From an uncultured Clostridia bacterium (GTDB lineage Bacteria; Bacillota; Clostridia; Oscillospirales; JAAYOS01): a stretch of 56,373 nt of DNA. Within the stretch, counting starts at the first letter, position 1. Every line of letters begins with the position of its first letter. This document shows positions 20,477-39,692 of the stretch, piece after piece. The stretch covers positions 1 through 56,373 of the forward strand of contig CANPWY010000002.1 in NCBI GenBank assembly GCA_947585215.1, written 5' to 3'. Below the pieces are notes generated by a model, which did no database searches, was not told the origin of the DNA, and saw only the letters and a list, made by a program, of their open reading frames with translations. A program made the position numbers and the translations under genes.

Positions 20477-20599
20477 AGCACTTGTTCTCCTCTCGTATTT
20501 TTCGGTGACGCCGCGAGCGGCGGGAACCGTCGGCTCCTCTCAGAGGGTATAACGGCGCGGGAGGTTTGTCAATATCGGCGGCGCGAATCGCCGAAAATG

Positions 20600-21031: not shown

Positions 21032-21061
21032 TTTACGACTATAATTAAGGAGGAACATACC

Positions 21062-21328
21062 ATGCTGAACGAAAAGAAGCCCGACGAGAAGACCCTGGAC
21101 GAAAAGACTCTCGAGGGAGTCACCGGCGGGTACAATCCCGACGTTATCGAGCCCAACCCCAATATCCCCACCGGGCCCGATCCCGCGGCGCAGTTCGCTT
21201 TCCTCGAGACGTTTAGGACCGTCAACTGCAACTCCTGCTCAAGACAGGACTGCCTCGCTCGCACCGATACGAAGGAAGCACTCAATCACTTCGGCGAAGG
21301 CATCTGCCCCCTTCGCGAAAGCAAGTAA
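21062..21328 (+). CDS. GG-leader peptide P2 (4-Cys NCxxC family)
   Basis: RBS AAGGAGGAACATACC-ATG. Leader MLNEKKPDEKTLDEKTLEGVTGG. Core has NCNSC...DC...GICP. Confidence 0.8.
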   Translation: MLNEKKPDEKTLDEKTLEGVTGGYNPDVIEPNPNIPTGPDPAAQFAFLETFRTVNCNSCSRQDCLARTDTKEALNHFGEGICPLRESK

Positions 21329-21341
21329 GGAGGAACATACC

Positions 21342-21563
21342 ATGTTTAACGAAAAGAAGCCAGAAGAGAAGACCGTGGACGAAAAGACCCTTGAGGGAGT
21401 CACCGGCGGATACGATTCCGATGACGAGTACGATTTCGCCGATAGGTTTATAGCGAGCAACTGCAACCGCTGCCGCAACATGGACTGCCCCGAGCGCGGC
21501 TACATAATGGCAATAATCAATCAGCACTACGGCGAAAGCATCTGCCCATCTCGCGAAGACTAG
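21342..21563 (+). CDS. GG-leader peptide P3 (4-Cys NCxxC family)
   Basis: Same RBS block as P2. Leader MFNEKKPEEKTVDEKTLEGVTGG. Core has NCNRC...DCP...SICP and is acidic. Confidence 0.8.
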   Translation: MFNEKKPEEKTVDEKTLEGVTGGYDSDDEYDFADRFIASNCNRCRNMDCPERGYIMAIINQHYGESICPSRED

Positions 21564-21579
21564 TAAGGAGGAAAGAGCG

Positions 21580-21795
21580 ATGGATGAGAAAAAGACCCTC
21601 TCCGATGAGACACTGAAAGACGTGTCCGGGGGAACATATGCGATCAATTATCGGGAACTTGAATACTTTGTAGGAAATAATTGCGCGTCTTGCAGCTTCG
21701 ATCAGCTCATGCACGGCTGCCCCTATGGAGGCAAAGTTTATGCATTTCAGGAGTTGGGCAAGGACGGGATCTGCCCGAAAAAGGAGGCAATGTGA
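21580..21795 (+). CDS. GG-leader peptide P4 (4-Cys NCxxC family)
   Basis: Leader MDEKKTLSDETLKDVSGG. Core has NCASC...GCPYGG...GICPKKE. Confidence 0.8.
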   Translation: MDEKKTLSDETLKDVSGGTYAINYRELEYFVGNNCASCSFDQLMHGCPYGGKVYAFQELGKDGICPKKEAM

Positions 21796-22013
21796 CCGTG
21801 GACGAGGAAAAGACCCTGTCCGACGAGGCGCTCGAAGAAGTGTCCGGGGGAATGACTCCGGCAGTACGCAGGGAGTTTGAGAAGTTTGCAAGAAATAATT
21901 GCATGCATTGCAGCCGCAAGGTAGAGCGAGACTGCCCCTATGGAGATGGCATGGAGGCGCTTCAGGCGTTAGGCGAGGACGGGATCTGCCCGGAAAAGGA
22001 GGCGAGGACATGA
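21792..22013 (+). CDS. GG-leader peptide P5 (4-Cys NCxxC family)
   Basis: GTG start overlapping the P4 stop (ATGTGA). Leader VTVDEEKTLSDEALEEVSGG. Core has NCMHC...DCPYGDG...GICPEKE. Confidence 0.75.
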   Translation: MTVDEEKTLSDEALEEVSGGMTPAVRREFEKFARNNCMHCSRKVERDCPYGDGMEALQALGEDGICPEKEART

Positions 22014-22225
22014 CAGACGAAAAGAAGCTGACTGACGAGACTCTCGAAGAAGTGTCCGGGGGAAAATTTCGGGACTTTTCTTTAGGGGGGGTTAGAAATT
22101 TCCAGAACCAGAATTGTGCGCATTGCCTTCACCAGCTGGACTGTCCCTATGGAGGCGCCTCTCAGGTAATTCAGACGGTGGGCGGCTACGCGACCTGCCC
22201 GAACAAGGAGGAGATACAGCCGTGA
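22010..22225 (+). CDS. GG-leader peptide P6 (4-Cys NCxxC family)
   Basis: ATGA overlap with P5. Leader MTDEKKLTDETLEEVSGG. Core has NCAHC...DCPYGG...ATCPNKE. Confidence 0.8.
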   Translation: MTDEKKLTDETLEEVSGGKFRDFSLGGVRNFQNQNCAHCLHQLDCPYGGASQVIQTVGGYATCPNKEEIQP

Positions 22226-22437
22226 CAGACAAAAAGAAACTGCCCGATGAGACGCTGAAAGATGTGTCCGGGGGAGCATTTGTGGAAATTTCTCCCGGAC
22301 TTGACCGCTTTACAGGAAATAATTGCATATCTTGCAGCAACAACCTGCCCGGGCGCGGCTGCCCCTACGGAAGCAGCGTTTATGCATTTAAGGAGTTGGG
22401 CAGGGACGGGATCTGCCCGAAAAAGGAGGCAATGTGA
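22222..22437 (+). CDS. GG-leader peptide P7 (4-Cys NCxxC family)
   Basis: GTGA overlap with P6. Leader VTDKKKLPDETLKDVSGG. Core has NCISC...GCPYGS...GICPKKE. Confidence 0.75.
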   Translation: MTDKKKLPDETLKDVSGGAFVEISPGLDRFTGNNCISCSNNLPGRGCPYGSSVYAFKELGRDGICPKKEAM

Positions 22438-22658
22438 CCGTGGACGAAGAAAAGAAGCTCGACGAAAAAGCTCTGGGCTCGGTCTCAGGAGGGGAGTACA
22501 CGCCGCCGGTATTTGACCGAAATATACGGGTATTCATATGCCCCGCCTGCGGGGAGACCATCAAAGGGGACGATTTCAGCGGCTTGAAGGTGCAGTGCCC
22601 CGGGTGCGGACATTGGCTCCGCCGCGGCTCGTCCGGGCTTATGCTTATGGAGGGATAA
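22434..22658 (+). CDS. GG-leader peptide P8 (zinc-ribbon-like CPxCG x2 core)
   Basis: GTG overlapping the P7 stop. Leader VTVDEEKKLDEKALGSVSGG. Core has ICPACGETIKGDDFSGLKVQCPGCGHWL. Confidence 0.75.
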   Translation: MTVDEEKKLDEKALGSVSGGEYTPPVFDRNIRVFICPACGETIKGDDFSGLKVQCPGCGHWLRRGSSGLMLMEG

Positions 22659-22662
22659 CGAT

Positions 22663-22905
22663 ATGTTTGATACCGATAAATTCCGTCAGGGGGAGGTTCC
22701 TCCCGAGCAGGAGGATTCCCTTGAGAACGTCGCCGGGGGAACGAACTTCTCAAGGCCAAACTATGAATCCCCGGACGTGTCAATGTACAGATGCCCTGTT
22801 TGCGGGGCTACCGTCAAGGACAACCACCTCAACCACTCGCAGCTGAAGTGCAACGGCTGCGGACGCCGGTTTCATCTCAACGGATCAACACTTGTGGAGG
22901 AATAA
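22663..22905 (+). CDS. GG-leader peptide P9 (zinc-ribbon-like core)
   Basis: Leader MFDTDKFRQGEVPPEQEDSLENVAGG. Core has RCPVCG...LKCNGCGRRFHLNGSTLVEE. Confidence 0.8.
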   Translation: MFDTDKFRQGEVPPEQEDSLENVAGGTNFSRPNYESPDVSMYRCPVCGATVKDNHLNHSQLKCNGCGRRFHLNGSTLVEE

Positions 22906-22910
22906 CGAAT

Positions 22911-23153
22911 ATGACTGATACCAATAAATTCCGGCGGGGCGAGGTACCTCCCGAGCAGGAGGACGCTCTCGAGAGCGTCGCCGGAGGCAAGTTCGAAAGG
23001 ACGAACTATGACTTAGAACAGAATAAATTAACGTTCACATGTCCCGCCTGTGGGCGCACGGTCAAAAGCAGCTTCGCCGACGGCCGGCGGCTGCAGTGCC
23101 CCGAGTGCGGACACCAATTTCATCTCAACGGATCACAACTTGTGGAGGAATAG
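22911..23153 (+). CDS. GG-leader peptide P10 (zinc-ribbon-like core)
   Basis: Leader MTDTNKFRRGEVPPEQEDALESVAGG. Core has TCPACG...LQCPECGHQFHLNGSQLVEE. Confidence 0.8.
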   Translation: MTDTNKFRRGEVPPEQEDALESVAGGKFERTNYDLEQNKLTFTCPACGRTVKSSFADGRRLQCPECGHQFHLNGSQLVEE

Positions 23154-23158
23154 CAAAT

Positions 23159-23409
23159 ATGATAGATACCAATAAATTCCAGCGGGGGGGTGCGTACCTC
23201 CTGAGCAGGAGGACGCTCTCGAGAGCGTCTCCGGAGGAGTAACATTCAAAGGGCCGCAAGTTGACGTGACGGAAATAACGCGCACATGCCCCGTCTGCGG
23301 CGCGACTTTCGCAGACAGCGTCGTCAACGGCCAAATGGTCGAGCGGATGCAGTGCCCCAAGTGCAAACGTGTGTTGCGTCTCGTCGGATCAACACTCGTG
23401 GAGGAATAG
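23159..23409 (+). pseudogene. GG-leader peptide P11 (zinc-ribbon-like core), frameshifted at a G7 tract
   Basis: It starts MIDTNKFQRGG, then the frame is lost at 23184-23190. The shifted downstream frame reads VPPEQEDALESVSGGVTFKGPQVDVTEITRTCPVCG...MQCPKCKRVLRLVGSTLVEE and stops at 23407-23409. One extra G would restore the frame. Confidence 0.7.
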
Positions 23410-23411
23410 TC

Positions 23412-23597
23412 ATGAACGAGGATAAAAAGCTCCGCCATGGCGCCTCCCCCAAGCCGCAGGACGCCGCGCTCGATGACAACGCCGTTGAGGCCGTCACCGG
23501 GGGAGTGAAGATGACAAGCAAGGCCCGTGCAGAAAAGGCGTTGGACAAAATCGAGCAGATGCTCGATAATCAGAAAGGCAAGGAGGATCAACCGTGA
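23412..23597 (+). CDS. GG-leader peptide P12 (Cys-free charged core)
   Basis: Leader MNEDKKLRHGASPKPQDAALDDNAVEAVTGG. Core VKMTSKARAEKALDKIEQMLDNQKGKEDQP. Confidence 0.75.
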   Translation: MNEDKKLRHGASPKPQDAALDDNAVEAVTGGVKMTSKARAEKALDKIEQMLDNQKGKEDQP

Positions 23598-23779
23598 ACG
23601 AGGATAAAAAACTCCGCCATGGCGCCTCCCCCAAGCCGCAGGACGCCGCGCTCGACGACGCCTCCGTTGAGGCCGTCACCGGGGGAACGAGGAGGTCAAG
23701 CAATGACTTGGCACAAGATGCATGGGACAAATTAAATCGGGTGCTCGATAATCAGAAAGACAAGGAGGATCAACCGTGA
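23594..23779 (+). CDS. GG-leader peptide P13 (Cys-free charged core)
   Basis: GTGA overlap with P12 and a near-identical leader. Core TRRSSNDLAQDAWDKLNRVLDNQKDKEDQP. Confidence 0.75.
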   Translation: MNEDKKLRHGASPKPQDAALDDASVEAVTGGTRRSSNDLAQDAWDKLNRVLDNQKDKEDQP

Positions 23780-24039
23780 ACGACGAAAAGAAGCTCAACG
23801 AGAAGGAGCTTGAAAACGTATCCGGCGGCGCGGCCGGAGCGGAGGGCTTCGAGGCCGCGTGGGCGGCCTACGCCGCCGAGCACTGCGGCAGATGCTACCA
23901 CCAAAATAAGGCACATCATGTAGAGGCATATACGGGCGAAATGACCGATTTGATGTGCGAAGGCGGAAAGATCTCGGCCGCCGAGGACTGGGCAGCGGGC
24001 ATGCCCATTCGCTGCCCGGCCTTCCTCGAACCGTGCTGA
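23776..24039 (+). CDS. GG-leader peptide P14 (5-Cys core)
   Basis: GTGA overlap with P13. Leader VNDEKKLNEKELENVSGG. Core has HCGRC...MC...RCPAFLEPC. Confidence 0.75.
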   Translation: MNDEKKLNEKELENVSGGAAGAEGFEAAWAAYAAEHCGRCYHQNKAHHVEAYTGEMTDLMCEGGKISAAEDWAAGMPIRCPAFLEPC

Positions 24040-24054
24040 GAAGGAGGAAAAGTT

Positions 24055-24282
24055 ATGAGCGAGAAAAAGAAGATAGACGAGAGGGAGCTGGAAAACGTGA
24101 ACGGCGGCGCAGACGCCGCCTCGGACAGCTTCGACGCCGTCTGGGAGGCGTTCGCCGTCACCCATTGCCACCAATGCGCCGTGCCGTACAAAGACACCTG
24201 CGCCGCGGAAATAAGGCGTGTGCGCGCGCAGTGGGAGGCGGGCAAGCCCCTCAAGTGCATGGCCTTTATCGACAAGTGCTGA
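24055..24282 (+). CDS. GG-leader peptide P15 (5-Cys core)
   Basis: RBS AAGGAGGAAAAG. Leader MSEKKKIDERELENVNGG. Core has HCHQC...TC...KCMAFIDKC. Confidence 0.8.
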   Translation: MSEKKKIDERELENVNGGADAASDSFDAVWEAFAVTHCHQCAVPYKDTCAAEIRRVRAQWEAGKPLKCMAFIDKC

Positions 24283-24373: not shown

Positions 24374-26275
24374 ATGAAAAGAAATACCAGGCGGCGGTAT
24401 CTGCTCGGCGCGGCGGTCATTCTTGCCGTGGCGGCGCTGATACTCGTCGTGTTCTCCCTGCTCAGTATGACCGACAAGAACGACATGGCGCTCGGCGACA
24501 AGGAAACGGAGCGCTTCGGCTGGAGCTATGAGCTCCTCACCGACGAGGGTGTGCGTCCCTACGACCCGGTGTTCCTGAACTGGTACTACATCCAGCTGCC
24601 GGAGGACACACGCGCCGTTCGGATAACCCGCGTCATGACCGAGGACATTCCGACGGCGGAGCTCACCTGGATGAGCTTTCGGGACGGCGTCGAGGTATCT
24701 CTTGACGGTATCCTGCTCTACACCGACTTCCCGTCGCTCGCGCGGGACGAGAACGGCTTCGTTCACCCCGACGAGACGGAGTGGGAGCGCATCTGGCGGC
24801 AGGGCGGCGAGGAGAACGTGCGCTCCACGCGCATGACCCTCCCTGAGGACTACGTCGGCATGACCCTCACCGTCACGACCTACTTCCGCGAGGGATACAT
24901 CGGCACGCCGGAATATCCGTACATCGGCGAGGCGGACGCGATGCTCGCGGCCTCCACCATAGTCCTCTCGGTGCGCTACAACGCCGTTATGACCCTCTAT
25001 GCGCTGCTCGCGCTGCTGATGGCGGGCGTGTTCCTCGTGGAGGTGTACAACGGCACCGGGGACGGCAGGACGCTCCTGCTCTGCCTCTACTTCCTGCTCC
25101 TGTTCCTGAAGGAGGCCTACGGCTCTATCGCCGGATATTACAGCGTGCTCACCGCGCGGCTGGATCTGCGGTTCCTGAGCGCGGTGTACATGGCGCCGCT
25201 CTATCTCTACCTCGTGCTCCGTATGCGGAGCCGGTGGAAGTGGCCGCTGTGCGCCGCCGTCACGGCGTGGGCGGTGTTTGAGAGCGTGTGGGAGCTGAGA
25301 CAGCCGGAGGGAATTGCGGTGCTCGTCGGGCCGGAGACGCTTGCGGTGCTCCTCGTCGTGACGGCGGCGCTCGCCGCCGACGGTCTCCGCCGCAAGGGAC
25401 GCACGGAGCAGGAGAAGAAGCGCCTCCTCGTCTACGGAATAATCGCCGCCGTACTCACGGCGGGATACATGCTGAACCGCATCCGCTCGTGGGACGGCGA
25501 CTTCGTCGGCTACTTCCGCGACGAGCTGTGGAACGGACTGAGCGTCGGCAACTGCTGGCCGGTGGTGAGTCTGCTCACCGGTGTCATATCGTGGATGACC
25601 GTTATCGTCGTCGTGTCCGAGGCCGTCCGCAGGACGCTTGCGACCCACCGCACGATGGACGTGCTCCGCGAGCGGGAACGTCAGACCGTGGCGGGCTACG
25701 AGAGATTGCTCGCGTCGGAGGACGACACCCGCGCCCTGCACCACGAGATGCGCCACCACATGCTCGCGCTCGAGGCTATCCTTGCCGACGGAGATACGGA
25801 GCGCGCCCGGCGGTACGTCGGCGCCGTCGCCGAGGACCTGGCGCAGGTGCCCACAGGGCGGTACTGCCGGAACATTCTCGTGGACATGATAGCCGGGAGC
25901 TTTCTCGACCGTGCGGCGGCGCAGGGCATCCGTGTGGAGCAGCACTTGGACCTGCCCGAGACGCTGAACATCGCCGACGAGGACTTGAGCGTCTTCCTCA
26001 GCAACATGCTCCAAAACGCTCTGGAGGCATGCGAGCGTATGAACCCGGAGCAGGATAGGTATATATGGGTCGATATGCACCTGCGGGGGAACTTCCTCTG
26101 CATACAGTGCGTCAACAGCCGTCCCGAGGGCGAGGAGCCGCGGGAGCGGGAGGGTCACGGCTACGGCCTCACGGCCATGCGCGCCGTGGCTGAAAAATAC
26201 AACAGCGCCCTGCTCATAGAGCGGGCGCCGAAGAGATTTTCGGTTACAAGCGACTTCTGCCTCGAGAAGTTTTGA
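24374..26275 (+). CDS. membrane sensor histidine kinase (GHKL, LytTR-partner type) with a large extracytoplasmic N-terminal domain
   Basis: One TM, an extracytoplasmic segment of about 170 aa, then about 6-7 TM helices. H-box LHHEMRHHMLAL, N-box FLSNMLQNALEA, G-box GHGYGL. Confidence 0.85.
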   Translation: MKRNTRRRYLLGAAVILAVAALILVVFSLLSMTDKNDMALGDKETERFGWSYELLTDEGVRPYDPVFLNWYYIQLPEDTRAVRITRVMTEDIPTAELTWMSFRDGVEVSLDGILLYTDFPSLARDENGFVHPDETEWERIWRQGGEENVRSTRMTLPEDYVGMTLTVTTYFREGYIGTPEYPYIGEADAMLAASTIVLSVRYNAVMTLYALLALLMAGVFLVEVYNGTGDGRTLLLCLYFLLLFLKEAYGSIAGYYSVLTARLDLRFLSAVYMAPLYLYLVLRMRSRWKWPLCAAVTAWAVFESVWELRQPEGIAVLVGPETLAVLLVVTAALAADGLRRKGRTEQEKKRLLVYGIIAAVLTAGYMLNRIRSWDGDFVGYFRDELWNGLSVGNCWPVVSLLTGVISWMTVIVVVSEAVRRTLATHRTMDVLRERERQTVAGYERLLASEDDTRALHHEMRHHMLALEAILADGDTERARRYVGAVAEDLAQVPTGRYCRNILVDMIAGSFLDRAAAQGIRVEQHLDLPETLNIADEDLSVFLSNMLQNALEACERMNPEQDRYIWVDMHLRGNFLCIQCVNSRPEGEEPREREGHGYGLTAMRAVAEKYNSALLIERAPKRFSVTSDFCLEKF

Positions 26276-26278
26276 CGC

Positions 26279-26995
26279 TCAGACCGGCGGACGCCGCCGG
26301 TCGAAGGCGGCGAGAGCCATCTGTATGCCGGAGTAGTCGGAGCGGCCGAGCGGAATGACGTCCCCGGAGGTCAGGCGCAGACGGTCGCGGCTCAGCACGG
26401 CGATGTGCTCGAGGTTGACGAGATAGCTGCGGTGTACGCGCACAAACCTACCCGCGGGAAGCTCGCGCTCAAGCTCCTGAAGCGTGCCCCGCCACGAGCT
26501 CTCGCTGCCGTCCAGGCGGTGGAGCTCCACGACATGGTTGTAAACCTCGAAGTAGAGCGCGTCCGCGACGGGCAGGCGCACGTCGCCCAAGGGCGTCGTG
26601 AGAGACAGCATCTGCGGCGCGTGCCGCTCGAGGAACTGACAGAGCACGCTCTCAAGCTGCTCCGGACGCAGCGGCTTTAGCAGATAGTGCAGGGGACGGA
26701 CGTCATAGCCGTCCACGGCGTATCTCTCGCTCGAGGACATGAGTACCAAGTCGAGATCGAGGTTCCGCTCGCGGAGGAGCTTGCCGAAGCGGATGCCCTT
26801 CTCCTCGCCGAAGAGAATATCGAGGAACAGAAGGTCGCACGGATCGCCCCGGTCCAGCGCGGAAAGCGTCAGGGACGGGTCGGGATAGCAGGTGATATTG
26901 CAGTCCGCGTCCCGCTCTCCGAAGAAGCGGGACAGGGTGGACGAAAGCGCCGAGGCAAAGGCGCTGTCGTCATCACATATAATGATTTCGTACAT
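26279..26995 (-). CDS. LytTR family response regulator
   Basis: Receiver domain MYEIIICDDD...DLLFLDI. C-terminal LytTR domain with FVRVHRSYLVNLEHI. Convergent with the kinase gene, 3 nt apart. Confidence 0.9.
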   Translation of the reverse strand: MYEIIICDDDSAFASALSSTLSRFFGERDADCNITCYPDPSLTLSALDRGDPCDLLFLDILFGEEKGIRFGKLLRERNLDLDLVLMSSSERYAVDGYDVRPLHYLLKPLRPEQLESVLCQFLERHAPQMLSLTTPLGDVRLPVADALYFEVYNHVVELHRLDGSESSWRGTLQELERELPAGRFVRVHRSYLVNLEHIAVLSRDRLRLTSGDVIPLGRSDYSGIQMALAAFDRRRPPV

Positions 26996-27110
26996 GCAGG
27001 TCACCCCCACTGTCTTACGGGAACAAACATTACTTTATCACATTTTTTGCAATAAATCAAGAGGATCCGCCGCGCAGAAAGCATGGCGGACGATACAAGG
27101 AGGAACAACA

Positions 27111-27407
27111 ATGACCATCACCAAGAACCTGAACGGGACACATCTCGACCTCGCGCTCGAGGGACGGCTGGACACCACCACCGCGCCCCTGCTTGAGGCG
27201 GAACTGAAGCAGAGCATAAACGGCGTCACCGAGCTGACGCTGGATTTCGGCGAGCTGGAGTATATCTCCTCCGCGGGACTGAGGGTGCTCCTCAGCGCCC
27301 AGAAGGTCATGAACCGGCAGGACTCCATGGTCATCAAAAATGTTAACGAGACGATAATGGAGATCTTCGAGGTCACCGGCTTCGCGGACATCCTGACTAT
27401 AGAGTGA
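27111..27407 (+). CDS. STAS domain protein (anti-sigma-factor antagonist, SpoIIAA/RsbV-like)
   Basis: 98 aa. RLDTTTAPLLEAEL...LDFGELEYISSAGLRVLL contains the conserved phosphorylatable Ser. RBS AAGGAGG. Confidence 0.85.
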   Translation: MTITKNLNGTHLDLALEGRLDTTTAPLLEAELKQSINGVTELTLDFGELEYISSAGLRVLLSAQKVMNRQDSMVIKNVNETIMEIFEVTGFADILTIE

Positions 27408-27408
27408 C

Positions 27409-29973
27409 ATGACGGGTGAGAAGCAAAACGATATGAAGCGCACGCCAATCCGCCGTCAGGTACAGCGGATGGTACTTCTGCTGTGCGTGGCGGCGCTGGT
27501 AGTCACGGGCGTGCTGTGGGCGGGGAGCCTCTTCGCTCTGCGGGACACGGTCCAGCGGGACAGCCAGGACTTGGGCGAGAGCGCGGCCTCCGCCGGCGGC
27601 GAGGCTCTGCTTTCCCAGATGGAGCAGAACCTCTATCAGGGCGTGCGGAGCGAGGCCGCTGTTGTGGACGAGAAGCTGGAGCGCTACGCCGCCGACGTGC
27701 GGGACTTCGCCTTCTACGCCGGGCGGCTCTATGAGGAGCCGGAGGCATACGTGCCGAAGGAGGTCCTGCCCCCGGACGCGGCGAGTCAGTATACCTTTAC
27801 TATGCAGCTCGTGTGGCGGGACAAGAGTACAGACAAGACCGCCGTGCAGGAGGAGATAGGCCTCCTTGCGAATCTTGTCCACATATGGCAGCCGGTGATG
27901 ACCGGCGACACGGAGAACATCGCGTCCATCTATCTCTGCACCGAGAGCGGGTTCATGATAAACTACGACGAGCGCTCCGACCTGACGCCGGATTACTTTG
28001 ACTATGAGCAGTCCGCATGGTATCAGGCCGCGAGGGACACCGGGGACGTTATCTTCACGGTGCCCTATATGGACACCTTCGGCCGCGGGCTCATGCTCAC
28101 CTGCGCCGCGCCGATCCACGACGCGGACGGCCGCTTCGCCGGCGTGGTGTGCATGGACATGATGGTGGAGGATCTTGTGGAGAAGGTGCTCGACATCGAC
28201 TTCGGCGAGGGCTCCTACGGCTTCCTGGTGGACGGAACGGGGAACATCATCGTCTCCCCGCAGATGGAGTACGACGGGACGTTTGAAAACGTCCGCGACC
28301 CGGACTGCCTTGCAAAGGAGGCGGCGGAGAGCATCATGAGCGGCGAGGCGGGCGTCACGCCCACCTCCGAAGGTCTCTACTATGCCTACGCGCCCATCGA
28401 CGCGTCGAACTGGACGCTTGCCGTCCACATGCCGGCGGATATGATAACCGCGCCGGCGGAGAACATCCGCACGGACATAACCGAGCGGACGGAGTCTACC
28501 GCCGGAACCATCGACAGCAATATCGCGCGGACGGGGCTCATTTCGCTTGCGGTATTCGTGGTGATAATCGGAGCGGTAGTCGCCCTGAGCGGAGGATTTT
28601 CCCGGAAGCTCACGGGGCCGCTTCTGGAGTTGCGCTCCGACGTGGAGCACATAAGCGGCGGCGACCTTGCTCATCAGGCCGCCGTGCGGCGCAACGACGA
28701 GATAGGCGACTTGGCGGCGGCTTTCAACGGCATGGCGGGGTCGCTTGACAGGTACATAAAGGATTTGACCGCCGTGACGGCGGAGAAGGAGCGCATCGGC
28801 GCGGAGCTGGACATCGCCACACACATTCAGGCGTCCATGCTGCCCTGTATCTTCCCCGCCTTTCCGAACCGGCGGGAATTCGACGTCTACGCATCAATGA
28901 CGCCCGCCAAGGAGGTAGGCGGCGACTTCTACGACTTCTTCATGGTGGACGACACGCACCTCGCCGTCGTGGTGGCGGACGTGTCCGGCAAGGGCGTTCC
29001 GGCGGCGCTGTTCATGGTCATCGGCAAGACGCTCATCAAGGACCACACCACCCCGAACAGAGACCTGGGCGAGGTGTTCATGGAGGTGAACCGCCTCCTG
29101 TGCGAAGGAAACGCCGAGGAGATGTTCATCACCGCCTTCGAGGGAGTGCTGGACCTTGAGACAGGCCGGTTCGACTTCGGCAACGCCGGCCATGAGACGC
29201 CGTTCATTTGCAGAAAGGGCGAGGGCTACGCCCCCTATAAGATACGCGCGGGCTTCGTGCTTGCGGGCATGGAGGGAACGCGCTACCGCATGGGCTCCTT
29301 GCAGCTTGAACCCGGCGACAAGCTGTTCCAGTACACGGACGGCGTCACCGAGGCCACAAACAGCCGGAGCGAGCTGTACGGCATGGAGCGGCTTGAGGCG
29401 GTGCTGAACCGCAACGCCGCCGCAGCGCCTGACGAGCTTCTCCTGAAGGTGAAGGCGGATATCGACGCCTTCGTGGGCGGAGCGCCGCAATTCGACGACA
29501 TCACGATGCTGTGCTTGGAGTTCAGTGAAAGAATGCGCGCATCCGACCAAAGCGAGCTCACCGTGGAGGCGGAGACGGAGAACATCCCCGTCGTGACGGC
29601 CTTTGTTGACGGCAAGCTGGAAGCGCTCGACTGCCCCGCGAAGGCCAAGACGCAGATAGACGTCGCCATCGACGAGCTGTTCGGCAACATCGCCCGGTAC
29701 GCTTACGACCCATCCGGCCCGGTGACCGTTCGGGTGGAAACGGAGAGGGAGCCAAAGACCGTGCGCATCACCTTCATCGACCGAGGAAAGCCCTACGACC
29801 CGCTTGCAAAGCCCGACCCGGACGTGACATTGCCCGCGGAGGAGCGGCCCATCGGGGGACTCGGCGTCTACATGGTGAAAAAGAGCATGGACGACGTGCG
29901 CTACGAGTACAGGGACGGCCAAAATATCCTGACGGTGGAAAAGCGTTTGCAGGACACGTCGGGAAAAGAATGA
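27409..29973 (+). CDS. dCache-HAMP-PP2C (SpoIIE) phosphatase fused to an RsbW-like HATPase Ser/Thr kinase domain
   Basis: TM1, extracytoplasmic Cache-like region of about 330 aa, TM2, and a HAMP domain (NDEIGDLAAAFNGMAGSL). PP2C motifs EVGGDFYDF and VADVSGKGVPAALFM. C-terminal region VAIDELFGNIARYAY...GGLGVYMVKKSMD. Starts 1 nt after the STAS stop. Confidence 0.8.
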   Translation: MTGEKQNDMKRTPIRRQVQRMVLLLCVAALVVTGVLWAGSLFALRDTVQRDSQDLGESAASAGGEALLSQMEQNLYQGVRSEAAVVDEKLERYAADVRDFAFYAGRLYEEPEAYVPKEVLPPDAASQYTFTMQLVWRDKSTDKTAVQEEIGLLANLVHIWQPVMTGDTENIASIYLCTESGFMINYDERSDLTPDYFDYEQSAWYQAARDTGDVIFTVPYMDTFGRGLMLTCAAPIHDADGRFAGVVCMDMMVEDLVEKVLDIDFGEGSYGFLVDGTGNIIVSPQMEYDGTFENVRDPDCLAKEAAESIMSGEAGVTPTSEGLYYAYAPIDASNWTLAVHMPADMITAPAENIRTDITERTESTAGTIDSNIARTGLISLAVFVVIIGAVVALSGGFSRKLTGPLLELRSDVEHISGGDLAHQAAVRRNDEIGDLAAAFNGMAGSLDRYIKDLTAVTAEKERIGAELDIATHIQASMLPCIFPAFPNRREFDVYASMTPAKEVGGDFYDFFMVDDTHLAVVVADVSGKGVPAALFMVIGKTLIKDHTTPNRDLGEVFMEVNRLLCEGNAEEMFITAFEGVLDLETGRFDFGNAGHETPFICRKGEGYAPYKIRAGFVLAGMEGTRYRMGSLQLEPGDKLFQYTDGVTEATNSRSELYGMERLEAVLNRNAAAAPDELLLKVKADIDAFVGGAPQFDDITMLCLEFSERMRASDQSELTVEAETENIPVVTAFVDGKLEALDCPAKAKTQIDVAIDELFGNIARYAYDPSGPVTVRVETEREPKTVRITFIDRGKPYDPLAKPDPDVTLPAEERPIGGLGVYMVKKSMDDVRYEYRDGQNILTVEKRLQDTSGKE

Positions 29974-29993
29974 TCACAGCGGAGGAAACGACT

Positions 29994-30470
29994 ATGGACA
30001 ACGGACTGTTTCGTCGGAAGACGCTGGACAAGGTGTCCAGCCCGGAGCAGATGAACGACTATATCCGGGTGACAAGTCCCGGCGTGTGGTTGGTACTGGC
30101 GGCGGTTATAGCGCTCCTTGCGGGGCTCATCATCTGGTCGGCGCTCGGCCGCTTGGAGACTACGGTGACGGCCGTGGCGGTGGCCGGGCCGGACGGCGGC
30201 CCCGTGTGTTACATAGCCGAGGACGACATGGACGCCGTCCGCGCGGGTCAGACCGTGCACATCGCGGGGAAGGACTATACCCTTTCCGGGGTGGCGGCGA
30301 AGCCGGTTCCGGCGGACGGAAGTCTCGACGCCTACGCCCTGCACGTGGGCGGCATGGAGGCGGACGGGTGGGTGTACCCCGCCGAGCTTGACGCGGTTCT
30401 TTCCGAAGGCATCTACGAGGCGCGGATAGTGGTGGACAGCGTGGCGCCAATCTCGTTTCTGCTGAACTGA
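29994..30470 (+). CDS. short HlyD-like secretion adaptor (NHLP bacteriocin system type)
   Basis: Start at MDNGLFRRKTLDKVSSPEQMNDYIRVTSPGVWLVL with RBS GGAGGAAA, followed by a single TM helix. An alternative ATG at 29970 overlaps the upstream stop. Confidence 0.7.
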   Translation: MDNGLFRRKTLDKVSSPEQMNDYIRVTSPGVWLVLAAVIALLAGLIIWSALGRLETTVTAVAVAGPDGGPVCYIAEDDMDAVRAGQTVHIAGKDYTLSGVAAKPVPADGSLDAYALHVGGMEADGWVYPAELDAVLSEGIYEARIVVDSVAPISFLLN

Positions 30471-30477
30471 GGCGCGT

Positions 30478-32652
30478 ATGAGAAAACAGGAGATAAAAAA
30501 GCCCGTCACAAAGGGCGTGGCGAAGGTGCCGGTCGTCATGCAGATGGAGACGCTGGAGTGCGGCGCGGCCTCCCTTGCCATGGTGCTGGCATTCTATAAC
30601 AAGTGGGTGCCGCTCGAGCAGGTGCGCGCGGACTGCGGCGTGAGCCGGGACGGCTCCAACGCAAAGAACGTGCTGAAAGCCGCGAGAAGCTACGGCCTCA
30701 CGGCAAACGCGTACCGTCTGGAGCCGGAGGATCTGCGGGAGAACGGAAGCTTCCCCTGCATCATCCACTGGAACTTCAATCACTTCGTGGTGCTCGACGG
30801 CTTCAAGGGCGGCAAGGCCATACTGAACGACCCTGCTCGGGGCATCGTCCCGGTGAGCATGGAGAACTTCGACGAATCCTTCACCGGTATCTGTCTGACG
30901 TTCGAGCCGGGGGAGGATTTCCGACCCGGCGGCAGTCCCAAGAGCATGGTGGGCTACGCGAAAAAGCGCCTCACCGGAGCGGGCGCAGCGCTCGTGTTCG
31001 TGATGCTGACGACGCTGATAAGCTCCCTCTTCGGCGTGATAAACCCCGCCTTCTCCCGCATCTTCATGGATCGGCTCCTGACGGGCGAGAACCCGGAGTG
31101 GCTGTGGCCGTTCATTCTGGTGCTGGCGGGTGTGAGCATACTTCAGCTTGTAGTGGCATGGGTGCAGGCGATATGGTCGCTTCGCATCACGGGAAAGCTT
31201 GCCGCGGTGGGCTCGGCCACTTTCCTTTGGAAGGTACTGCACATGCCGATGGAGTTCTTCTCCCAACGCATGGCGGGCGACATACGTCAGCGGCAGTCCA
31301 CCAACGCCTCCATCGCTCAGGAGCTGGTGAACACTCAGGGTCCGCTGGTGCTGAACGCCATCATGATGGTGTTCTATCTGGTGGTCATGCTGCGGTATTC
31401 GTGGATACTCACCATAGTGGGTCTCTCGTCCGTACTCATCACTCTGGTGGTGAGCCGGTATATCTCAAAGAAGCGGGTGAACATCACCCGCGTGCAGATG
31501 CGCGACTCCGGCAAGCTGACGTCTTCCACCATGGCGGCCATCGAGATGATAGAGACCATCAAGGCCGCCGGAGCGGAGAACGGCTATTTTGAGCGCTGGG
31601 CGGGGTATCAGGCAAGCGTCAACACCCAGCAGATGCGATATGCAAAGACGGACGCGTACCTCGGACTCATTCCGTCCGTCGTGAGCGTCATCAGGGACGC
31701 TGTCTTCCTGTTCCTCGGCGTGCTGTTTGTCATGCAGGGTGAGTTCACCATCGGTATGGTCATGGCGTTTCAGGGCTTTCTCATGAGCTTCACCGCCCCG
31801 GCGACGACGCTCATCGACGCCGGGCAGACCATTCAGGAAATGCGCACCGAGATGGAACGCGTGGAGGACGTGATGGAGTACCCCGAGGACAGCAACATGA
31901 CCGAGTCGGAGGAGCAGGAAAACTGCGACAAGCTCACGGGAGCCTTGGAGATGAAGCACGTCACCTTCGGCTAATCCAAGCTAGCCGAGCCGCTCATTGA
32001 GGACTTCAATCTTAGCCTGAAGCCGGGAAGCCGTGTGGCCTTCGTCGGCGGCTCCGGCTGCGGAAAATCGACGCTCAGCAAGCTCATCTCGGGCCTTTAC
32101 CGACCGTGGAGCGGAGAGATACTCTTCGACGGCAAGCCGATACGCGAGATCGACCGGAGCGTGTTTACCGGGTCGCTCGCCGTCGTTGATCAGGACGTCA
32201 TCCTCTTCGAGGACACCATCGCCGAGAACATAAAGATGTGGGACAAGTCCATAGAGGACTTTGAGATGATCCTCGCGGCTCGGGACGCAGGCATACACAG
32301 CGACATCATAAAGCGCGAGGGCGGCTACGACCACAAGCTCGTCGAGGGCGGCCGGGACTTCTCCGGCGGCCAGCGCCAGCGCATGGAGATAGCGCGCGTC
32401 CTCGCGCAGGACCCCACCATCATCATACTTGACGAAGCCACGTCCGCTCTGGACGCCAAGACGGAATACGAGGTAGTGAAGTCCATCAAGGACAGGGGCG
32501 TCACCTGCATCGTGGTGGCTCACCGGCTCTCTACCATCCGGGACTGCGACGAGATAATCGTCCTGGACCACGGCAAGGTGGTGGAGCGCGGCACCCATGA
32601 CGAGCTTTACGCCATGGGTGGGTACTACACCCGTCTGGTGTCCAACGACTGA
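30478..32652 (+). pseudogene. bacteriocin-type ABC exporter with N-terminal C39 peptidase domain, interrupted by one in-frame TAA (31972-31974)
   Basis: C39 motifs VVMQMETLECGAASLAMVL and IIHWNFNHFVVL, followed by 6 TM helices. [40 protein letters not shown] continues in the same frame through Walker A, LSGGQRQR and [10 protein letters not shown]. Confidence 0.8.
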
Positions 32653-32666
32653 GGAGGTGTGACGCA

Positions 32667-34865
32667 ATGGGATGGTTTGACGAACAGATAAGAGAGCGCC
32701 GGCGCCGCGATCAGCAGGCCTTCGAGGAGGGCGTTGAATCCATCGCGGGGGCGGTACTGGGCCGTCGCGGCGCACCGGGCGGCGGGAGCCGTCAGGCACA
32801 GAGCGCCATGGACGAGATCCTGCGATACTACCACGCAAAGAGTCGGGAACTGCCCGACTCGGTGAAGGACTTAAACGAACAGCTCGAATTTCTCCTGCGT
32901 CCCTACGGCATCATGCGCCGGACGGTGAACTTGGAGAAGGGCTGGTACAAGGACGCCGTCGGGGCGATGCTCGCCCGACGGAAGTCGGACGGAGCCCTCG
33001 CGGCCATGATCCCCACGGGGCTTTCGGGCTACACCTACGCCGACCCGGACACGGGCAGGCGCCGCCGGGTGAACGCCCGGACGGAGGAGCTCTTTGAAAG
33101 GGAAGCCATTGCTTTCTATAAGCCCTTCCCGCAGGGGAAGATAGGCATCCCGGGTCTGATGAAATACATAGTTTCCAGCACCTCGGTTGCGGACTGGATA
33201 CTCTTTGCCGCGTCCGCACTCGCGGTGAGCCTTGTGGGACTGCTCCTGCCCCGGCTTAACAACCTCCTGTTTTCACGGGTGGCGGCGAGCGGGAGCGTGA
33301 CGGTGCTCGCGGCGCTGGTGAGCTTCATGCTGCTCGTGAACGTCAGCTCCCTCCTTTTGGGGGCGGTGAAGAAGATACTCACCACGCGCATGAACACGAA
33401 GGTCTCCGTGTCGGTGGAGGCCGCGGCGATGATGCGCCTTTTCTCCCTGCCCGCAAACTTCTTCCGGCAGTACAGCACCGGCGAGATGTCGAGCCGCGTC
33501 ATGAATATCAAGACGCTTTCTACTCTGCTCATCTCCTCGGTGGCGGCGGTGGGAATTACGAGCCTCTTCTCCCTCCTGCAGATAACCCAGATCTTCGCCT
33601 ACGCCCCGGCGCTTGTGGCGCCGGCGCTTATCATCGTCGCCGTGACGCTCGTGTTCTCGGTGCTGACGACGGTGCGTCAGCGGAGCGTCACCCAACAGAA
33701 GATGGAGCAGAGCGCCAAGGAGAACGGACTCTCCTACGCCCTCATCAGCGGCGTGCAGAAGGTGAAGCTCTCCGGCGCGGAGAAAAGGGCGTTCGCAAAG
33801 TGGAGCGAGCAGTACGCCAAGGGCGCGCGTCTTCAGTACGACCCGCCCATGTTTTTGAAGGTGAACGGCGTTATCAGCCTCGCCATCTCCCTCACCGGGA
33901 CGCTCGTGATGTACGCTGTGGCGGTGAAGAGCGGCGTGTCTGCGGCGGAATACTACGCCTTCAACTCCGCCTACGCCATGATAAGCGGCGCGTTTATGTC
34001 CCTTGCCGGAATTGCGGCCATGGTGGGTCAGATAATCCCCATCCTCAATATGGCAAAGCCCATCTTGGAGGCGGAGCCGGAGATAGCGGAGGAGAAGCAG
34101 ATGGTGGGCCGTCTCGCCGGAGGCATCGAGCTCAACAACGTCTCCTTCCGTTACTCGGAGGATATGCCGAACGTCCTCGACGACCTGAGCCTCAAGATAC
34201 GCCCCGGCCAGTATGTGGCAATCGTCGGAAAGACCGGCTGCGGCAAATCGACGCTCATGCGCCTGCTTCTCGGCTTCGAGACGCCCCAGAGGGGCGCCGT
34301 CTATTACGACGGGCGGGACATGGCGGGGCTTGATTTGAAAAGCCTGCGGCGGCGCATGGGCGTCGTTATGCAGGACGGCAAGCTCTTTCAGGGCGACATC
34401 TACTCCAACATCACCATCTCCGCGCCGTGGCTCACCATGGACGACGCGTGGGAAGCGGCGGAGATGGCGGGCGTGGCGGAGGACATCCGGCGCATGCCCA
34501 TGGGGATGCACACCCTCATCTCCGAGGGAAGCGGCGGCATCTCCGGCGGTCAGCGCCAGAGACTGCTGATTGCCCGCGCAATCGCGCCGAAGCCGCGCAT
34601 ACTCATGTTTGATGAGGCGACCTCTGCGCTCGACAACATCACTCAGCGGGTGGTGTCCGAGTCGCTCGACAAGCTCAAATGCACCCGCATCGTGATAGCC
34701 CACCGGCTCAGCACCATCCGCCACTGCGACCGGATAATCGTGCTTGACGGCGGCCATATCGTGGAGGACGGCACCTACGACGAGCTTATAGCCCAAAACG
34801 GCTTCTTTGCGGAGCTGGTGTCGCGTCAGCGGCTGGATACGGACGCCGCCGCGAGTGACAATTAA
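32667..34865 (+). CDS. second bacteriocin-type ABC exporter permease/ATPase (no C39 domain; N-terminal accessory domain)
   Basis: 732 aa. An N-terminal domain of about 150 aa, 6 TM helices, Walker [28 protein letters not shown]. The pairing with a C39-ABC and a HlyD-like gene matches NHLP-type exporters. Confidence 0.85.
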   Translation: MGWFDEQIRERRRRDQQAFEEGVESIAGAVLGRRGAPGGGSRQAQSAMDEILRYYHAKSRELPDSVKDLNEQLEFLLRPYGIMRRTVNLEKGWYKDAVGAMLARRKSDGALAAMIPTGLSGYTYADPDTGRRRRVNARTEELFEREAIAFYKPFPQGKIGIPGLMKYIVSSTSVADWILFAASALAVSLVGLLLPRLNNLLFSRVAASGSVTVLAALVSFMLLVNVSSLLLGAVKKILTTRMNTKVSVSVEAAAMMRLFSLPANFFRQYSTGEMSSRVMNIKTLSTLLISSVAAVGITSLFSLLQITQIFAYAPALVAPALIIVAVTLVFSVLTTVRQRSVTQQKMEQSAKENGLSYALISGVQKVKLSGAEKRAFAKWSEQYAKGARLQYDPPMFLKVNGVISLAISLTGTLVMYAVAVKSGVSAAEYYAFNSAYAMISGAFMSLAGIAAMVGQIIPILNMAKPILEAEPEIAEEKQMVGRLAGGIELNNVSFRYSEDMPNVLDDLSLKIRPGQYVAIVGKTGCGKSTLMRLLLGFETPQRGAVYYDGRDMAGLDLKSLRRRMGVVMQDGKLFQGDIYSNITISAPWLTMDDAWEAAEMAGVAEDIRRMPMGMHTLISEGSGGISGGQRQRLLIARAIAPKPRILMFDEATSALDNITQRVVSESLDKLKCTRIVIAHRLSTIRHCDRIIVLDGGHIVEDGTYDELIAQNGFFAELVSRQRLDTDAAASDN

Positions 34866-34924
34866 TACTAATATTTTACAGAAAATAGAATTTTTTAGCG
34901 GTGAGGAAAGAGAAAAGTGCCGCG

Positions 34925-35006
34925 CGACATGCAATTCGAGTCGTGATTTCGTCGATTCGGGACAAAGCGGTTGACAACCGCCCCAAAGTTTCGGATACTT
35001 AAACCG
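34925..35006 (+). promoter_or_regulatory. promoter/operator repeat copy 2 (upstream of the methyltransferase-STAS gene)
   Basis: 82 bp with about 4 mismatches to 20616-20697. ATTCGAG (34934) and ATTCGGG (34955) are 21 bp apart. TTGACA (34971-34976), 17 nt, GATACT (34994-34999). Confidence 0.6.
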
Positions 35007-35061
35007 AATTGATTTTGACTTACCGCAAAATCATAAACTCATCGGAAAGGACGGCATCAAA

Positions 35062-36300
35062 ATGGACGAACTGAGAGCAAGGACAAATCCCGCCTTCAAC
35101 GGAGCCAAGTCGACGCTGGTGTACCTCGTGGAGGCCGGGGACGGGAACGCGGCCATGATGGCGGGGGAGCTGAACATCGACCCCAACGCCGTGTTCGGCG
35201 GCGAGAAGAGGGACGCTCTGAGTATGGGCATGATGGCCACCGTGGACGCCGGCTACGAGATCATGAACAAGATCATGTCCTCCGTGCCGGAGAAGACCAT
35301 CGTCGATCTGGGCTGCGGCTACACTCCCCGGGCGCTGATCCCGGAGCTTGAAAACAAGCACTACATAGGCTGTGACCTGCCCATCGTCATCGACGAGATG
35401 GCTCCGCTCGCAAAGAAGCTTCTTGCGGGCAAAAACCGCCCCGCCCCGGCGGAGTACAAGGCGGCGGACTTCACAAACTACGACTCTCTGCGCGCCGCTC
35501 TGAACGGCGTGGAGGGGCCGGTGTGCCTCGAAAGTCAGAGCACGCTGGACTACCTCACTCAGTCGGAGGTGCGTCAGCTCTGCGCCAACGTGCGCCGGGT
35601 GCTTGTGGAGTTCGGCGGCCGCTGGCTCACCCCGGACGTTGAGGCGGGCGACCGCACGGTGAACACGCTGATGGCCGTCGTGGGCGCGGACGCCCTGCGG
35701 GATGTTATGAGCGCCTTCACCACGCTGTCCTCCGAGACGGACGTAGTGGTGGGTGACAATGATATGATCATCCGCTACGGCTATACGGATGACATTCCCA
35801 AGTGCGCGGCTCTGCTGAAAGAGGTCGGTCTGAAGGCAAAGAAGATCACCATGAGCGATTACATGCCCGAGCTGAAGGTGTTTGGAAAGCTCAACGATGA
35901 ACAGCGGGCGGCCATGAAGAAGGCATACGAAAGCCTGAACGCGTGGGAGCTGACCCCTGACCCCGACTGGACCGAGCCCGAGGCGAAGACGGGCGGCGAA
36001 TTCGGCATTGACACCGCCGTGAACGGCTCTGACCTCACCGTCACCCTGCGGGGCCGGGTGGACTCGCTCACTGCGCCGGAGTTCCTCGCCGCCTTTGAAA
36101 AGGTCGCCGGGGAGAACGCCCTCGCCGCCGCGACGGTGGATATGTCGAACCTTGAGTACATCTCCTCCGCCGGACTCCGTGTCCTGCTCATCATGACGAA
36201 GCGCCTCGGCGCGGGCCATGTGATCGTCACCGGCGCAAACGAGCTAATCCGCTCCATCTTCGAGCAGACCGGCTATGACGACATTCTGAGGATACGATAA
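35062..36300 (+). CDS. class I SAM-dependent methyltransferase-like domain fused to a C-terminal STAS domain
   Basis: N-terminal region with IVDLGCGYTPRAL (motif I, Leu-carboxyl/TcmP-like). The C-terminal 100 aa reads LRGRVDSLTAPEFLAAF...VDMSNLEYISSAGLRVLLIM, paralogous to the stand-alone STAS protein. Confidence 0.7.
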   Translation: MDELRARTNPAFNGAKSTLVYLVEAGDGNAAMMAGELNIDPNAVFGGEKRDALSMGMMATVDAGYEIMNKIMSSVPEKTIVDLGCGYTPRALIPELENKHYIGCDLPIVIDEMAPLAKKLLAGKNRPAPAEYKAADFTNYDSLRAALNGVEGPVCLESQSTLDYLTQSEVRQLCANVRRVLVEFGGRWLTPDVEAGDRTVNTLMAVVGADALRDVMSAFTTLSSETDVVVGDNDMIIRYGYTDDIPKCAALLKEVGLKAKKITMSDYMPELKVFGKLNDEQRAAMKKAYESLNAWELTPDPDWTEPEAKTGGEFGIDTAVNGSDLTVTLRGRVDSLTAPEFLAAFEKVAGENALAAATVDMSNLEYISSAGLRVLLIMTKRLGAGHVIVTGANELIRSIFEQTGYDDILRIR

Positions 36301-36328: not shown

Positions 36329-36577
36329 ATGAACGACGAAAAGAAACTGAACGAAAAGAAGCTGGACGAAAAGACCTTGGAAGAGGTCACCGGCGGGAAC
36401 AGCATATCGGATGAGTATAAGGCGGAAGAGTGGTACTTTATCGTTGACAACTGCATCGGCTACTGCGTCTACGAGGGTCCGGGGGGCTGCCCCTACGCAG
36501 ATAAGCACGCCGCCTACGCCGCCAGAAACCCCGACGGCTCCTGCCCCGGTCAGAAGAAGCACAAAGACTTAATGTAA
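36329..36577 (+). CDS. GG-leader peptide P16 (4-Cys family, orphan copy)
   Basis: RBS AAGGAGGAACAAAAA-ATG. Leader MNDEKKLNEKKLDEKTLEEVTGG. Core has NCIGYC...GGCPY...GSCP. Confidence 0.8.
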   Translation: MNDEKKLNEKKLDEKTLEEVTGGNSISDEYKAEEWYFIVDNCIGYCVYEGPGGCPYADKHAAYAARNPDGSCPGQKKHKDLM

Positions 36578-39251: not shown

Positions 39252-39270
39252 GGGAACCCGTCCTCCTTTC

Positions 39271-39690: not shown

Positions 39691-39692
39691 TC

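Follow-up and report, generated by a model that had tools for sequence, protein, structure and literature searches.

The plus strand of a 56,373-nt stretch of DNA from an uncultured Clostridia bacterium (Oscillospirales; JAAYOS01; contig CANPWY010000002.1 of assembly GCA_947585215.1), hereafter the window, carries one peptide locus between 20.8 and 36.6 kb, in which the genes of a partner-switching module lie inside a peptide-exporter operon. This tightly packed operon (27111-34865) starts divergently from the gene of a LytTR response regulator and encodes, in order, a STAS protein, a dCache-HAMP-PP2C-RsbW-like kinase fusion, a short HlyD-like protein, a C39 peptidase-ABC protein (C39-ABC) and a second ABC protein (ABC2). 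From one gene to the next there is a gap of 1 nt, an overlap of 4 nt, and gaps of 7 nt and 14 nt, and these spacings together with the domain matches bear out the packed gene order described in the initial annotation of this DNA. Through an ATGA overlap, translation of the HlyD-like gene is coupled to that of the fusion gene. After the end of the ABC2 gene, a gap of 196 nt precedes the start of a gene for a methyltransferase fused to a second STAS domain (Table 1). The last three genes of the operon were assigned by NCBIfam to the NHLP/Nif11 export trio TIGR03794/03796/03797, and the locus is best explained as a quorum-sensing-type, multi-peptide bacteriocin-like cluster in which peptides with double-glycine (GG) leaders are accompanied by a histidine kinase with its LytTR regulator and by a double-ABC exporter of the NHLP/Nif11 type.

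Table 1. Features of the peptide locus (positions in the window; TM, transmembrane segment).
Feature	Position	Strand	Description
Diverged inverted copy of the LytTR-type promoter	20559..20614	-	Inverted repeat of 56 nt; 71% complementarity with 20620-20675
Promoter copy 1, upstream of the peptide array	20620..20678	+	ATTCG-N16-ATTCGG direct repeats (21-bp spacing), then TTGACA -35
GG-leader peptide array, ~15 small genes	20801..24282	+	Mostly Cys-rich cores; four zinc-ribbon-like; one frameshifted
Membrane histidine kinase, HATPase_c_5 (GHKL)	24374..26275	+	PF14501 E 4.9e-11; type pairing with LytTR regulators
Response regulator, LytTR DNA-binding domain	26279..27010	-	PF00072 + PF04397; convergent with the histidine kinase gene
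Single-domain STAS protein, 98 aa	27111..27407	+	PF01740 E 1.7e-13; TIGR00377 67.5 bits (cut-off 53.45)
Membrane sensor fusion, 854 aa	27409..29973	+	TM, dCache_1, TM, HAMP, PP2C (SpoIIE family), RsbW-like Ser kinase (HATPase_c_2)
Short single-TM protein, 166 aa	29970..30470	+	TIGR03794 (NHLP HlyD-like adaptor), N-terminus only
C39 peptidase-ABC exporter	30478..32652	+	TIGR03796 type; in-frame TAA 31972-31974
Second ABC permease/ATPase (ABC2), intact	32667..34865	+	TIGR03797 735.8 bits (cut-off 709.4); model positions 27-685 of 686
Promoter copy 2, preceding the methyltransferase-STAS gene	34929..34987	+	Near-identical to copy 1
Predicted LCM-type class I methyltransferase with C-terminal STAS, 412 aa	35062..36300	+	STAS = residues 316-411
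Extra GG-leader peptide gene	36329..36577	+	Directly 3' of the methyltransferase-STAS gene

The SSAGL motif of the small STAS protein aligns with DSSGL of SpoIIAA, and this family motif places the predicted phospho-acceptor at Ser54. The 854-aa fusion matched dCache_1 (E 1e-24), HAMP, the SpoIIE/PP2C family over model positions 1-191 of 192 (PF07228, E 2.9e-44) and HATPase_c_2 (PF13581, E 7.7e-21); Pfam found no Response_reg domain in it, the input being dCache and HAMP. Its PP2C aspartates D506, D524, D644 and D696/D697 are invariant across 19 homologues, and the kinase domain, aligned with RsbW (6m36_A), keeps the N, G1 and G2 boxes (E..N, DxGxxxD and GGLG). Judging from these alignments, the phosphatase, kinase and acceptor elements all look functional. 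The initial annotation had also pointed to an identical acceptor segment in the two STAS domains. Indeed, both proteins contain LEYISSAGLRVLL, but LEY[ILV]SSAGLRVLL is the consensus of the entire STAS family (52 loci), and the segment was rejected as the mark of a special tie between the two domains, which are only ~41% identical overall.

In the methyltransferase-STAS protein the predicted acceptor is Ser369. S368/S369 are invariant within the methyltransferase-STAS family, as are G86, D105 and D136. The window protein itself gave no significant match to a Pfam methyltransferase family (best Methyltransf_25, E 0.049), and 26/33 full-length homologues match PF04072 (LCM, best E 9e-7). Further Foldseek analysis of an AlphaFold model (pLDDT 86.6, pTM 0.84) matched the N-terminal domain to TYW4, Rv0731c, ML2640c and human LCMT1, and the C-terminal domain to SpoIIAA and RsbV with an rmsd of ~1.1 Å. 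The family-level LCM matches and the structure model together suggest that the N-terminal domain is a methyltransferase. An LCM-methyltransferase-STAS fusion under a quorum-sensing-type promoter appears to be undescribed.

The methyltransferase-STAS gene and the peptide array were annotated initially as having the same type of promoter, and the two promoter copies are in fact identical at 58 of 59 positions. They are the sole two copies of this 59-nt element in the window (chance expectation 0), and the ATTCG-N16-ATTCGG arrangement is present at both, against 0.04 matches expected by chance. Copy 2 contains the best sigma-70-like match of the region, TTGACA-17-GATACT. In the related locus L084 (related loci are cited by number), paired repeats are kept before the kinase gene with matching changes in both (GATTCAGG-N13-GATTCAGG). 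The locus thus has class II-type three-component features, combining a HATPase_c_5 kinase and a LytTR regulator with direct repeats at both promoters, and the LytTR regulator probably binds these repeats. The inverted copy at 20559-20614, a candidate promoter in its own right, adjoins copy 1 and points to a Flavodoxin_2/FMN-reductase-like gene (19922-20476, minus strand); because of this orientation, the latter gene may belong to the LytTR regulon as well.

Peptide genes were searched for with a ribosome-binding-site filter. The leaders of the array are of the short double-glycine type (for example MNDEKKLNEKELENVSGG), and the peptide at 23776-24039 matched the TIGR01847 bacteriocin GG-signal model (E 0.004, 17.6 bits, cut-off 15.7). 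NHLP (TIGR03793) or Nif11 (TIGR03798) leaders were not matched in three window peptides scanned. Four GG-leader peptides (22434-23409) carry two CPxCG-type pairs and are zinc-ribbon-like, with a weak match to NF047912 (ECs_2282 zinc-binding family, E 2.6e-6), which is an unusual cargo for a bacteriocin-type exporter. In the frameshifted member (23160-23409), the leader MIDTNKFQRGG... is cut off by a stop codon, and a different frame encodes the zinc-ribbon-like core MTEITRTCPVCG... A GG-leader peptide gene 3' of the methyltransferase-STAS gene or genes, as in the window, is also found in L081, L084 and L087.

The fusion has more than 3,700 homologues. In 80 phosphatase-anchored loci on one-genome-per-species contigs, neighbouring genes were identified by tblastn of the window proteins and all-against-all clustering. 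The exporter adjoins the phosphatase in 9/80 species, against at most ~1.3% expected by our own rough estimate (p ~1e-6, the loci not being independent). The exporter trio lies directly downstream of the phosphatase in L006, L007, L008, L032, L034, L063, L076 and L079, and 4 kb away on the opposite strand in L050; these exporter-linked loci also carry GG-leader, Cys-rich peptides. From the opposite direction, 80 metagenome loci found with ABC2 (60-67% identity) were collapsed to 45 exporter-anchored clusters, at least 22 of which contain STAS, PP2C or kinase genes in whatever flank was available (~7% expected, again a rough estimate of our own; p ~1e-14). Among the 12 clusters with at least 6.5 kb of upstream and 6 kb of downstream sequence, 8 show switch genes. 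The juxtaposition of module and exporter, which would have been random had synteny not been conserved, recurs from both anchors. Gene orders vary, from STAS-PP2C-kinase-HlyD-like-C39ABC-ABC2 through ABC2-STAS-(LPG_synthase_C-like)-MatE-PP2C-kinase to STAS alone flush with the exporter. In a neighbour-joining tree of PP2C domains, exporter-linked members fall into at least three clades, mixed with unlinked ones. The linkage holds in different families and gene orders, with identities as low as ~41% for the phosphatase and 48% for ABC2, and because it survives rearrangement and deep divergence it argues for a functional tie between module and exporter.

Unbiased neighbour clustering around the phosphatase returned STAS in 52/83 loci, a MatE transporter in 33/83, a separate RsbW-like kinase in 27/83, an LPG_synthase_C-like protein in 16/83, a STAS-APH kinase fusion in at least 12/83 and the exporter trio in 11/83. 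In the phosphatase family, enzymes and transporters are thus often joined to STAS or RsbW-like modules. The MatE transporters are ~560-610 aa long and lie between STAS and PP2C genes (L075 2647-4407; L076 7587-9260). The member scanned, from L075, has a weak C-terminal match to HATPase_c_2 (RsbW-like, E 7e-4), which suggests a transporter with a built-in STAS docking domain; we know of no description of such a MatE transporter. The fusions of STAS to APH (an aminoglycoside/choline-kinase-like phosphotransferase), ~390-450 aa in length, recur beside PP2C-kinase genes (L003, L014, L016, L030, L031, L039, L058, L066, L067, L071 and L078), and in L171 one of them (12572-13750) lies within the exporter operon.

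Among the nearer relatives, L087 (88% identical) has a window-like arrangement, and L171 (70% identical to the fusion) encodes a radical-SAM protein, GG peptides, STAS, the same dCache fusion, a STAS-APH protein, an intact exporter and more peptides. L088 (86%) carries peptides, the kinase and the LytTR regulator, and a phosphatase lacking the kinase domain that lies between the regulator gene and two methyltransferase-STAS genes; the exporter and the small STAS are absent from it. The phosphatase gene is hence directly adjacent to the methyltransferase-STAS genes in L088, and the PP2C-kinase gene lies 5 kb upstream of the methyltransferase-STAS gene in the window. In L084 the kinase and the LytTR regulator are joined by two methyltransferase-STAS genes and a GG peptide, and the neighbourhood lacks a phosphatase. 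A ~432-aa protein with an HxxxDG motif (FHALTDGAG; condensation/acyltransferase-like, no Pfam match) is encoded near the STAS-fusion pair in three relatives (L087 6535-7797, L171 19257-20555 and L172 8299-9600), directly upstream of STAS in L087 and L172, and is absent from the window.

We tentatively propose, giving it a little less than an even chance, that phosphorylation of both STAS domains is controlled by the sensor, with outputs that bypass a sigma factor. The dCache domain of the membrane fusion would sense an extracellular ligand, and the signal, passed through HAMP, would shift the balance between the PP2C phosphatase and the RsbW-like kinase. This balance would set serine phosphorylation of two clients, the small STAS at Ser54 and the methyltransferase-STAS protein at Ser369, the latter co-induced with the peptides, whose LytTR-type promoter it shares. 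The output would be post-translational rather than through a sigma factor: phosphorylation would turn the methyltransferase-STAS protein on or off, or free it from the kinase domain, and the small STAS would act as a competitor or buffer and perhaps also as an exporter adaptor. Which protein phosphorylates which, the ligand, the methyltransferase substrate and the effect of phosphorylation are all predicted elements of this scheme. Fusions of STAS or HATPase_c_2 to enzymes and transporters in the wider family fit non-sigma outputs, and the lack of a sigma gene in the window speaks for them too. SypE/SypA, BtrU/BtrV/BtrW (PMC8256260) and the Anabaena STAS-glycosyltransferase All4160 (PMC13555669) serve as precedents. 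In the lineage of the window, methyltransferase-STAS is the best-supported client of the phosphatase, judging from the arrangement in L088, from the LytTR-type promoter that it shares with the array and from its pairing with a GG peptide.

Several observations weigh against this proposal. The phospho-switch between the fusion and its STAS clients is predicted from sequence. Distant homologues of methyltransferase-STAS (38-47% identical) occur as solitary genes in unrelated surroundings, so the methyltransferase is not a dedicated peptide-modifying enzyme, and a methyltransferase domain next to the phosphatase homologues is absent in all 80 phosphatase-anchored loci, for which reason the methyltransferase was rejected as a general partner of the phosphatase family. 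In L001, L082 and L172 (66-77%), the STAS and fusion genes stand alone among housekeeping genes, with neither exporter nor methyltransferase near the pair; L001 and L082 are close relatives and L172 is somewhat more distant. Moreover, C39-ABC is broken in the window and in two relatives, and the system may be decaying in this lineage. Finally, an extracytoplasmic function (ECF) sigma factor, frequent in related exporter clusters, keeps a transcriptional output open.

Partner switching is a textbook route to alternative sigma factors. Under such a classical scheme, the RsbW-like domain would be an anti-sigma for a sigma factor encoded elsewhere in the genome, and in relatives the target would be the cluster's own ECF sigma, which dephosphorylated STAS would release for transcription of the peptide, maturase and exporter genes. 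The initial annotation had found no sigma factor in sight, and indeed none was detected by Pfam scans of plausible open reading frames (ORFs) in the 56-kb window; when all 434 six-frame segments of 60 aa or more were scanned with an ECF-sigma profile, the best E was 1.4. This absence is lineage-specific, however, as an ECF-type sigma of ~160 aa (TIGR02937, 100-108 bits) is common in related clusters, next to either the exporter or the radical-SAM gene and in L006 27 nt after the kinase gene, and for the wider family a classical transcriptional output is plausible for that reason. Of the 12 long-flank exporter clusters, sigma is present in 6 of the 8 that carry switch genes, but the association is not significant (cells 6, 1, 2, 3; Fisher p = 0.22), and the exporter cluster with the most members (20 contigs, flanks of 10 kb) has sigma but no switch genes. 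In addition, the sigma owns a translationally coupled partner of ~78 aa, switch present or not. This ORF overlaps the start of the ECF sigma gene, has no Pfam match (L109 12301-12537; L095 12295-12534; 40 exporter loci) and may be a small cognate anti-sigma or co-factor. Since both kinds of cluster carry the same sigma-coupled ORF, a comparison of them for replacement of a conventional anti-sigma by the RsbW-like kinase was uninformative. The peptide and methyltransferase-STAS promoters of the window look LytTR-activated, with a sigma-70-type TTGACA -35 element, and RsbW-type anti-sigmas are known for group 3 sigmas, not ECF sigmas, which also counts against the classical scheme. Overall, we consider it unlikely for this locus, though more likely than the alternatives that follow.

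A second alternative assigns the small STAS to the exporter itself: it would dock, in a phosphorylation-dependent manner, on an exporter ATPase or an N-terminal cytoplasmic domain, much as the STAS protein MlaB binds the ABC ATPase MlaF, and the Cache signal would license export. Across the family, STAS has the tightest association with the exporter of any switch gene. It lies flush with the ABC2 or HlyD-like gene, with no phosphatase in the available flanks, in L103, L122, L153, L155, L160 and L162, and directly follows ABC2 in L006 and L008; the ATGA coupling of the fusion and HlyD-like genes in the window points the same way. However, the STAS-only loci are often short-flanked, and a phosphatase may be off the contig. 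Adjacency fits co-regulation equally well. The small STAS matches the MlaB model NF033618 (E 1.9e-4) at 21.8 bits, far below the cut-off of 90, and in the wider family the commonest neighbour with a STAS docking domain is the MatE-HATPase_c_2 fusion, not the ABC pair. A precedent exists in Bordetella, where the switch proteins BtrU/BtrV/BtrW are encoded in a secretion locus and are needed for secretion, acting on the secretion process and not on a defined sigma (PMC8256260). That system differs from the present one in serving type III secretion in a Gram-negative pathogen with separate proteins, while here a fused sensor accompanies an ABC peptide exporter of Clostridia. The STAS-ABC interaction is putative, and we regard direct gating of export as unlikely. 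A more general form of the idea, that STAS serves the two-ABC NHLP/Nif11 exporter as an accessory subunit under phosphorylation control, through which the sensor would license export together with the activity of STAS-fused tailoring enzymes, post-translationally and on an extracellular cue, as a sigma-free checkpoint widespread in clusters of gut Clostridia for bacteriocins or ribosomally made, post-translationally modified peptides (RiPPs), is likewise conjectural, and we think it unlikely.

The exporter genes themselves bear on a further explanation. The 166-aa HlyD-like protein covers only positions 1-48 of 421 of TIGR03794 (40.7 bits, cut-off 156.2), and this short gene is kept, at 157-177 aa, before the exporter in 11/83 loci. 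C39-ABC is recognized as two TIGR03796 fragments (544.3 and 339.6 bits, cut-off 853.3; model positions 1-486 and 508-709), and its in-frame TAA replaces the Tyr of VTFGY found in the 96%-related strain L081. L081 has a frameshift of its own near codon 165 (near 13560-13590), and in L087 a +1 frameshift falls in a C7 run near codon 505 (12690-12700), whereas the gene is intact in L171 and in more distant loci. The switch genes might accordingly be an inherited remnant that arrived with the exporter block from an ancestral Nif11/radical-SAM cluster and has no role in a decaying locus. The disruption of C39-ABC in three related assemblies (the window, L081 and L087), each time at another site, the frameshifted array gene, the absence here of the sigma and radical-SAM maturase of related clusters, and the switch pair standing alone in close relatives are all consistent with such decay. 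On the other hand, STAS, the fusion, ABC2 and methyltransferase-STAS are encoded by unbroken genes, catalytic residues are conserved, the linkage to the exporter persists through deep divergence as described above, and the three lesions are either real pseudogenization or assembly errors in low-coverage metagenome bins (L081 has ~7x coverage). We hold the remnant explanation to be improbable.

Compared with the RsbU/RsbV/RsbW and SpoIIE/SpoIIAA/SpoIIAB systems of Bacillota, the module has the same parts, a STAS protein with a serine loop, a SpoIIE-family PP2C phosphatase and a GHKL serine kinase. In contrast to those systems, a single membrane protein with an extracellular dCache sensor unites phosphatase and kinase, no sigma gene is nearby, and the switch genes lie inside a peptide-exporter operon. 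An RsbW-like kinase and a PP2C phosphatase in one polypeptide are also found in Vibrio fischeri SypE/SypA and in HsbR/HsbA. HsbR is cytoplasmic with a receiver-domain input. SypE, too, is cytoplasmic with a receiver-domain input, unlike the membrane-bound dCache-HAMP protein described here, and the output of SypE/HsbR-type systems is biofilm or flagella, whereas here the module belongs to a peptide locus. SypE is a dual kinase/phosphatase, and the STAS protein SypA is itself the output, with no sigma identified (PMC8256260). In Anabaena, the phosphatase HenR and the RsbW-like kinases Alr3423/All2284 control the STAS-glycosyltransferase All4160 via phosphorylation of its STAS serine (PMC13555669). 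The methyltransferase-STAS protein resembles All4160 in being an enzyme fused to a STAS domain with a conserved serine and accompanied by PP2C and RsbW-like kinase domains, which here would regulate it by analogy; All4160 is a glycosyltransferase with an N-terminal STAS, however, whereas the window protein is a predicted LCM-type methyltransferase with a C-terminal one.

The three exporter genes are the same by NCBIfam as those of the NHLP/Nif11 (N11P) cassette TIGR03794/03796/03797, for which Haft et al. (2010) mention no STAS, phosphatase or sigma partner (PMC2887384). Unlike in that cassette, the HlyD-like gene here encodes a ~160-aa single-TM stub and the precursors have short GG leaders. 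Many related exporter loci do encode Nif11-leader precursors (TIGR03798; 35.6 bits in L095, cut-off 32.3) and a radical-SAM/SPASM maturase. In its regulation the locus is akin to the three-component systems of class II bacteriocins, sharing the HATPase_c_5 kinase, the LytTR regulator, GG peptides and 21-bp-spaced repeats upstream of the -35 element at two promoters. Examples of such systems are Pln, Blp and Com, each with a GG-leader peptide, an HPK10-type kinase and a LytTR regulator, and their exporter is a single ComA/BlpA-type transporter, not a two-ABC NHLP type as here. The phospho-switch and the STAS-fused methyltransferase under the same promoter type are additions with respect to these systems.

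The individual parts are all of known kinds, but the recurrent wiring of partner switching into NHLP/Nif11-type export and RiPP clusters of gut Clostridia appears to be undescribed. A literature search for a link of partner switching, STAS or SpoIIE with bacteriocins, RiPPs or Nif11 turned up no relevant paper, in agreement with the initial annotation, which knew of no bacteriocin or RiPP system with STAS/PP2C/RsbW logic. Known non-sigma outputs of partner switching are few, comprising SypA, BtrV, HsbA and, in 2026, the STAS-glycosyltransferase, and the link between module and exporter or RiPP genes is seen in dozens of gut Clostridia lineages and survives rearrangement. If functional, it would put the production of bacteriocins and RiPPs by the gut microbiota under a further layer of signalling and could help the heterologous expression of silent clusters, and the intact-exporter loci L171 and L076 would be compact systems for studying how STAS phosphorylation controls non-sigma targets. 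The significance of the link is to be taken with caution: related clusters encode a sigma, export gating is hypothetical, and an exporter gene is interrupted in the window.

Outside the peptide locus, a radical-SAM/SPASM gene (1966-3000, minus strand) lies 18 kb away from the array; its product is only ~27% identical across 162 aa to the maturases of related clusters, and for this reason it is probably unrelated to the locus. On the other side, a type IV pilus-like cluster (38151-56368, minus strand) encodes two T2SSE ATPases, T2SSF and several N_methyl pilins, one of which is fused to a CHAP domain, together with a 1577-aa protein without domains and a 1029-aa SLH protein.

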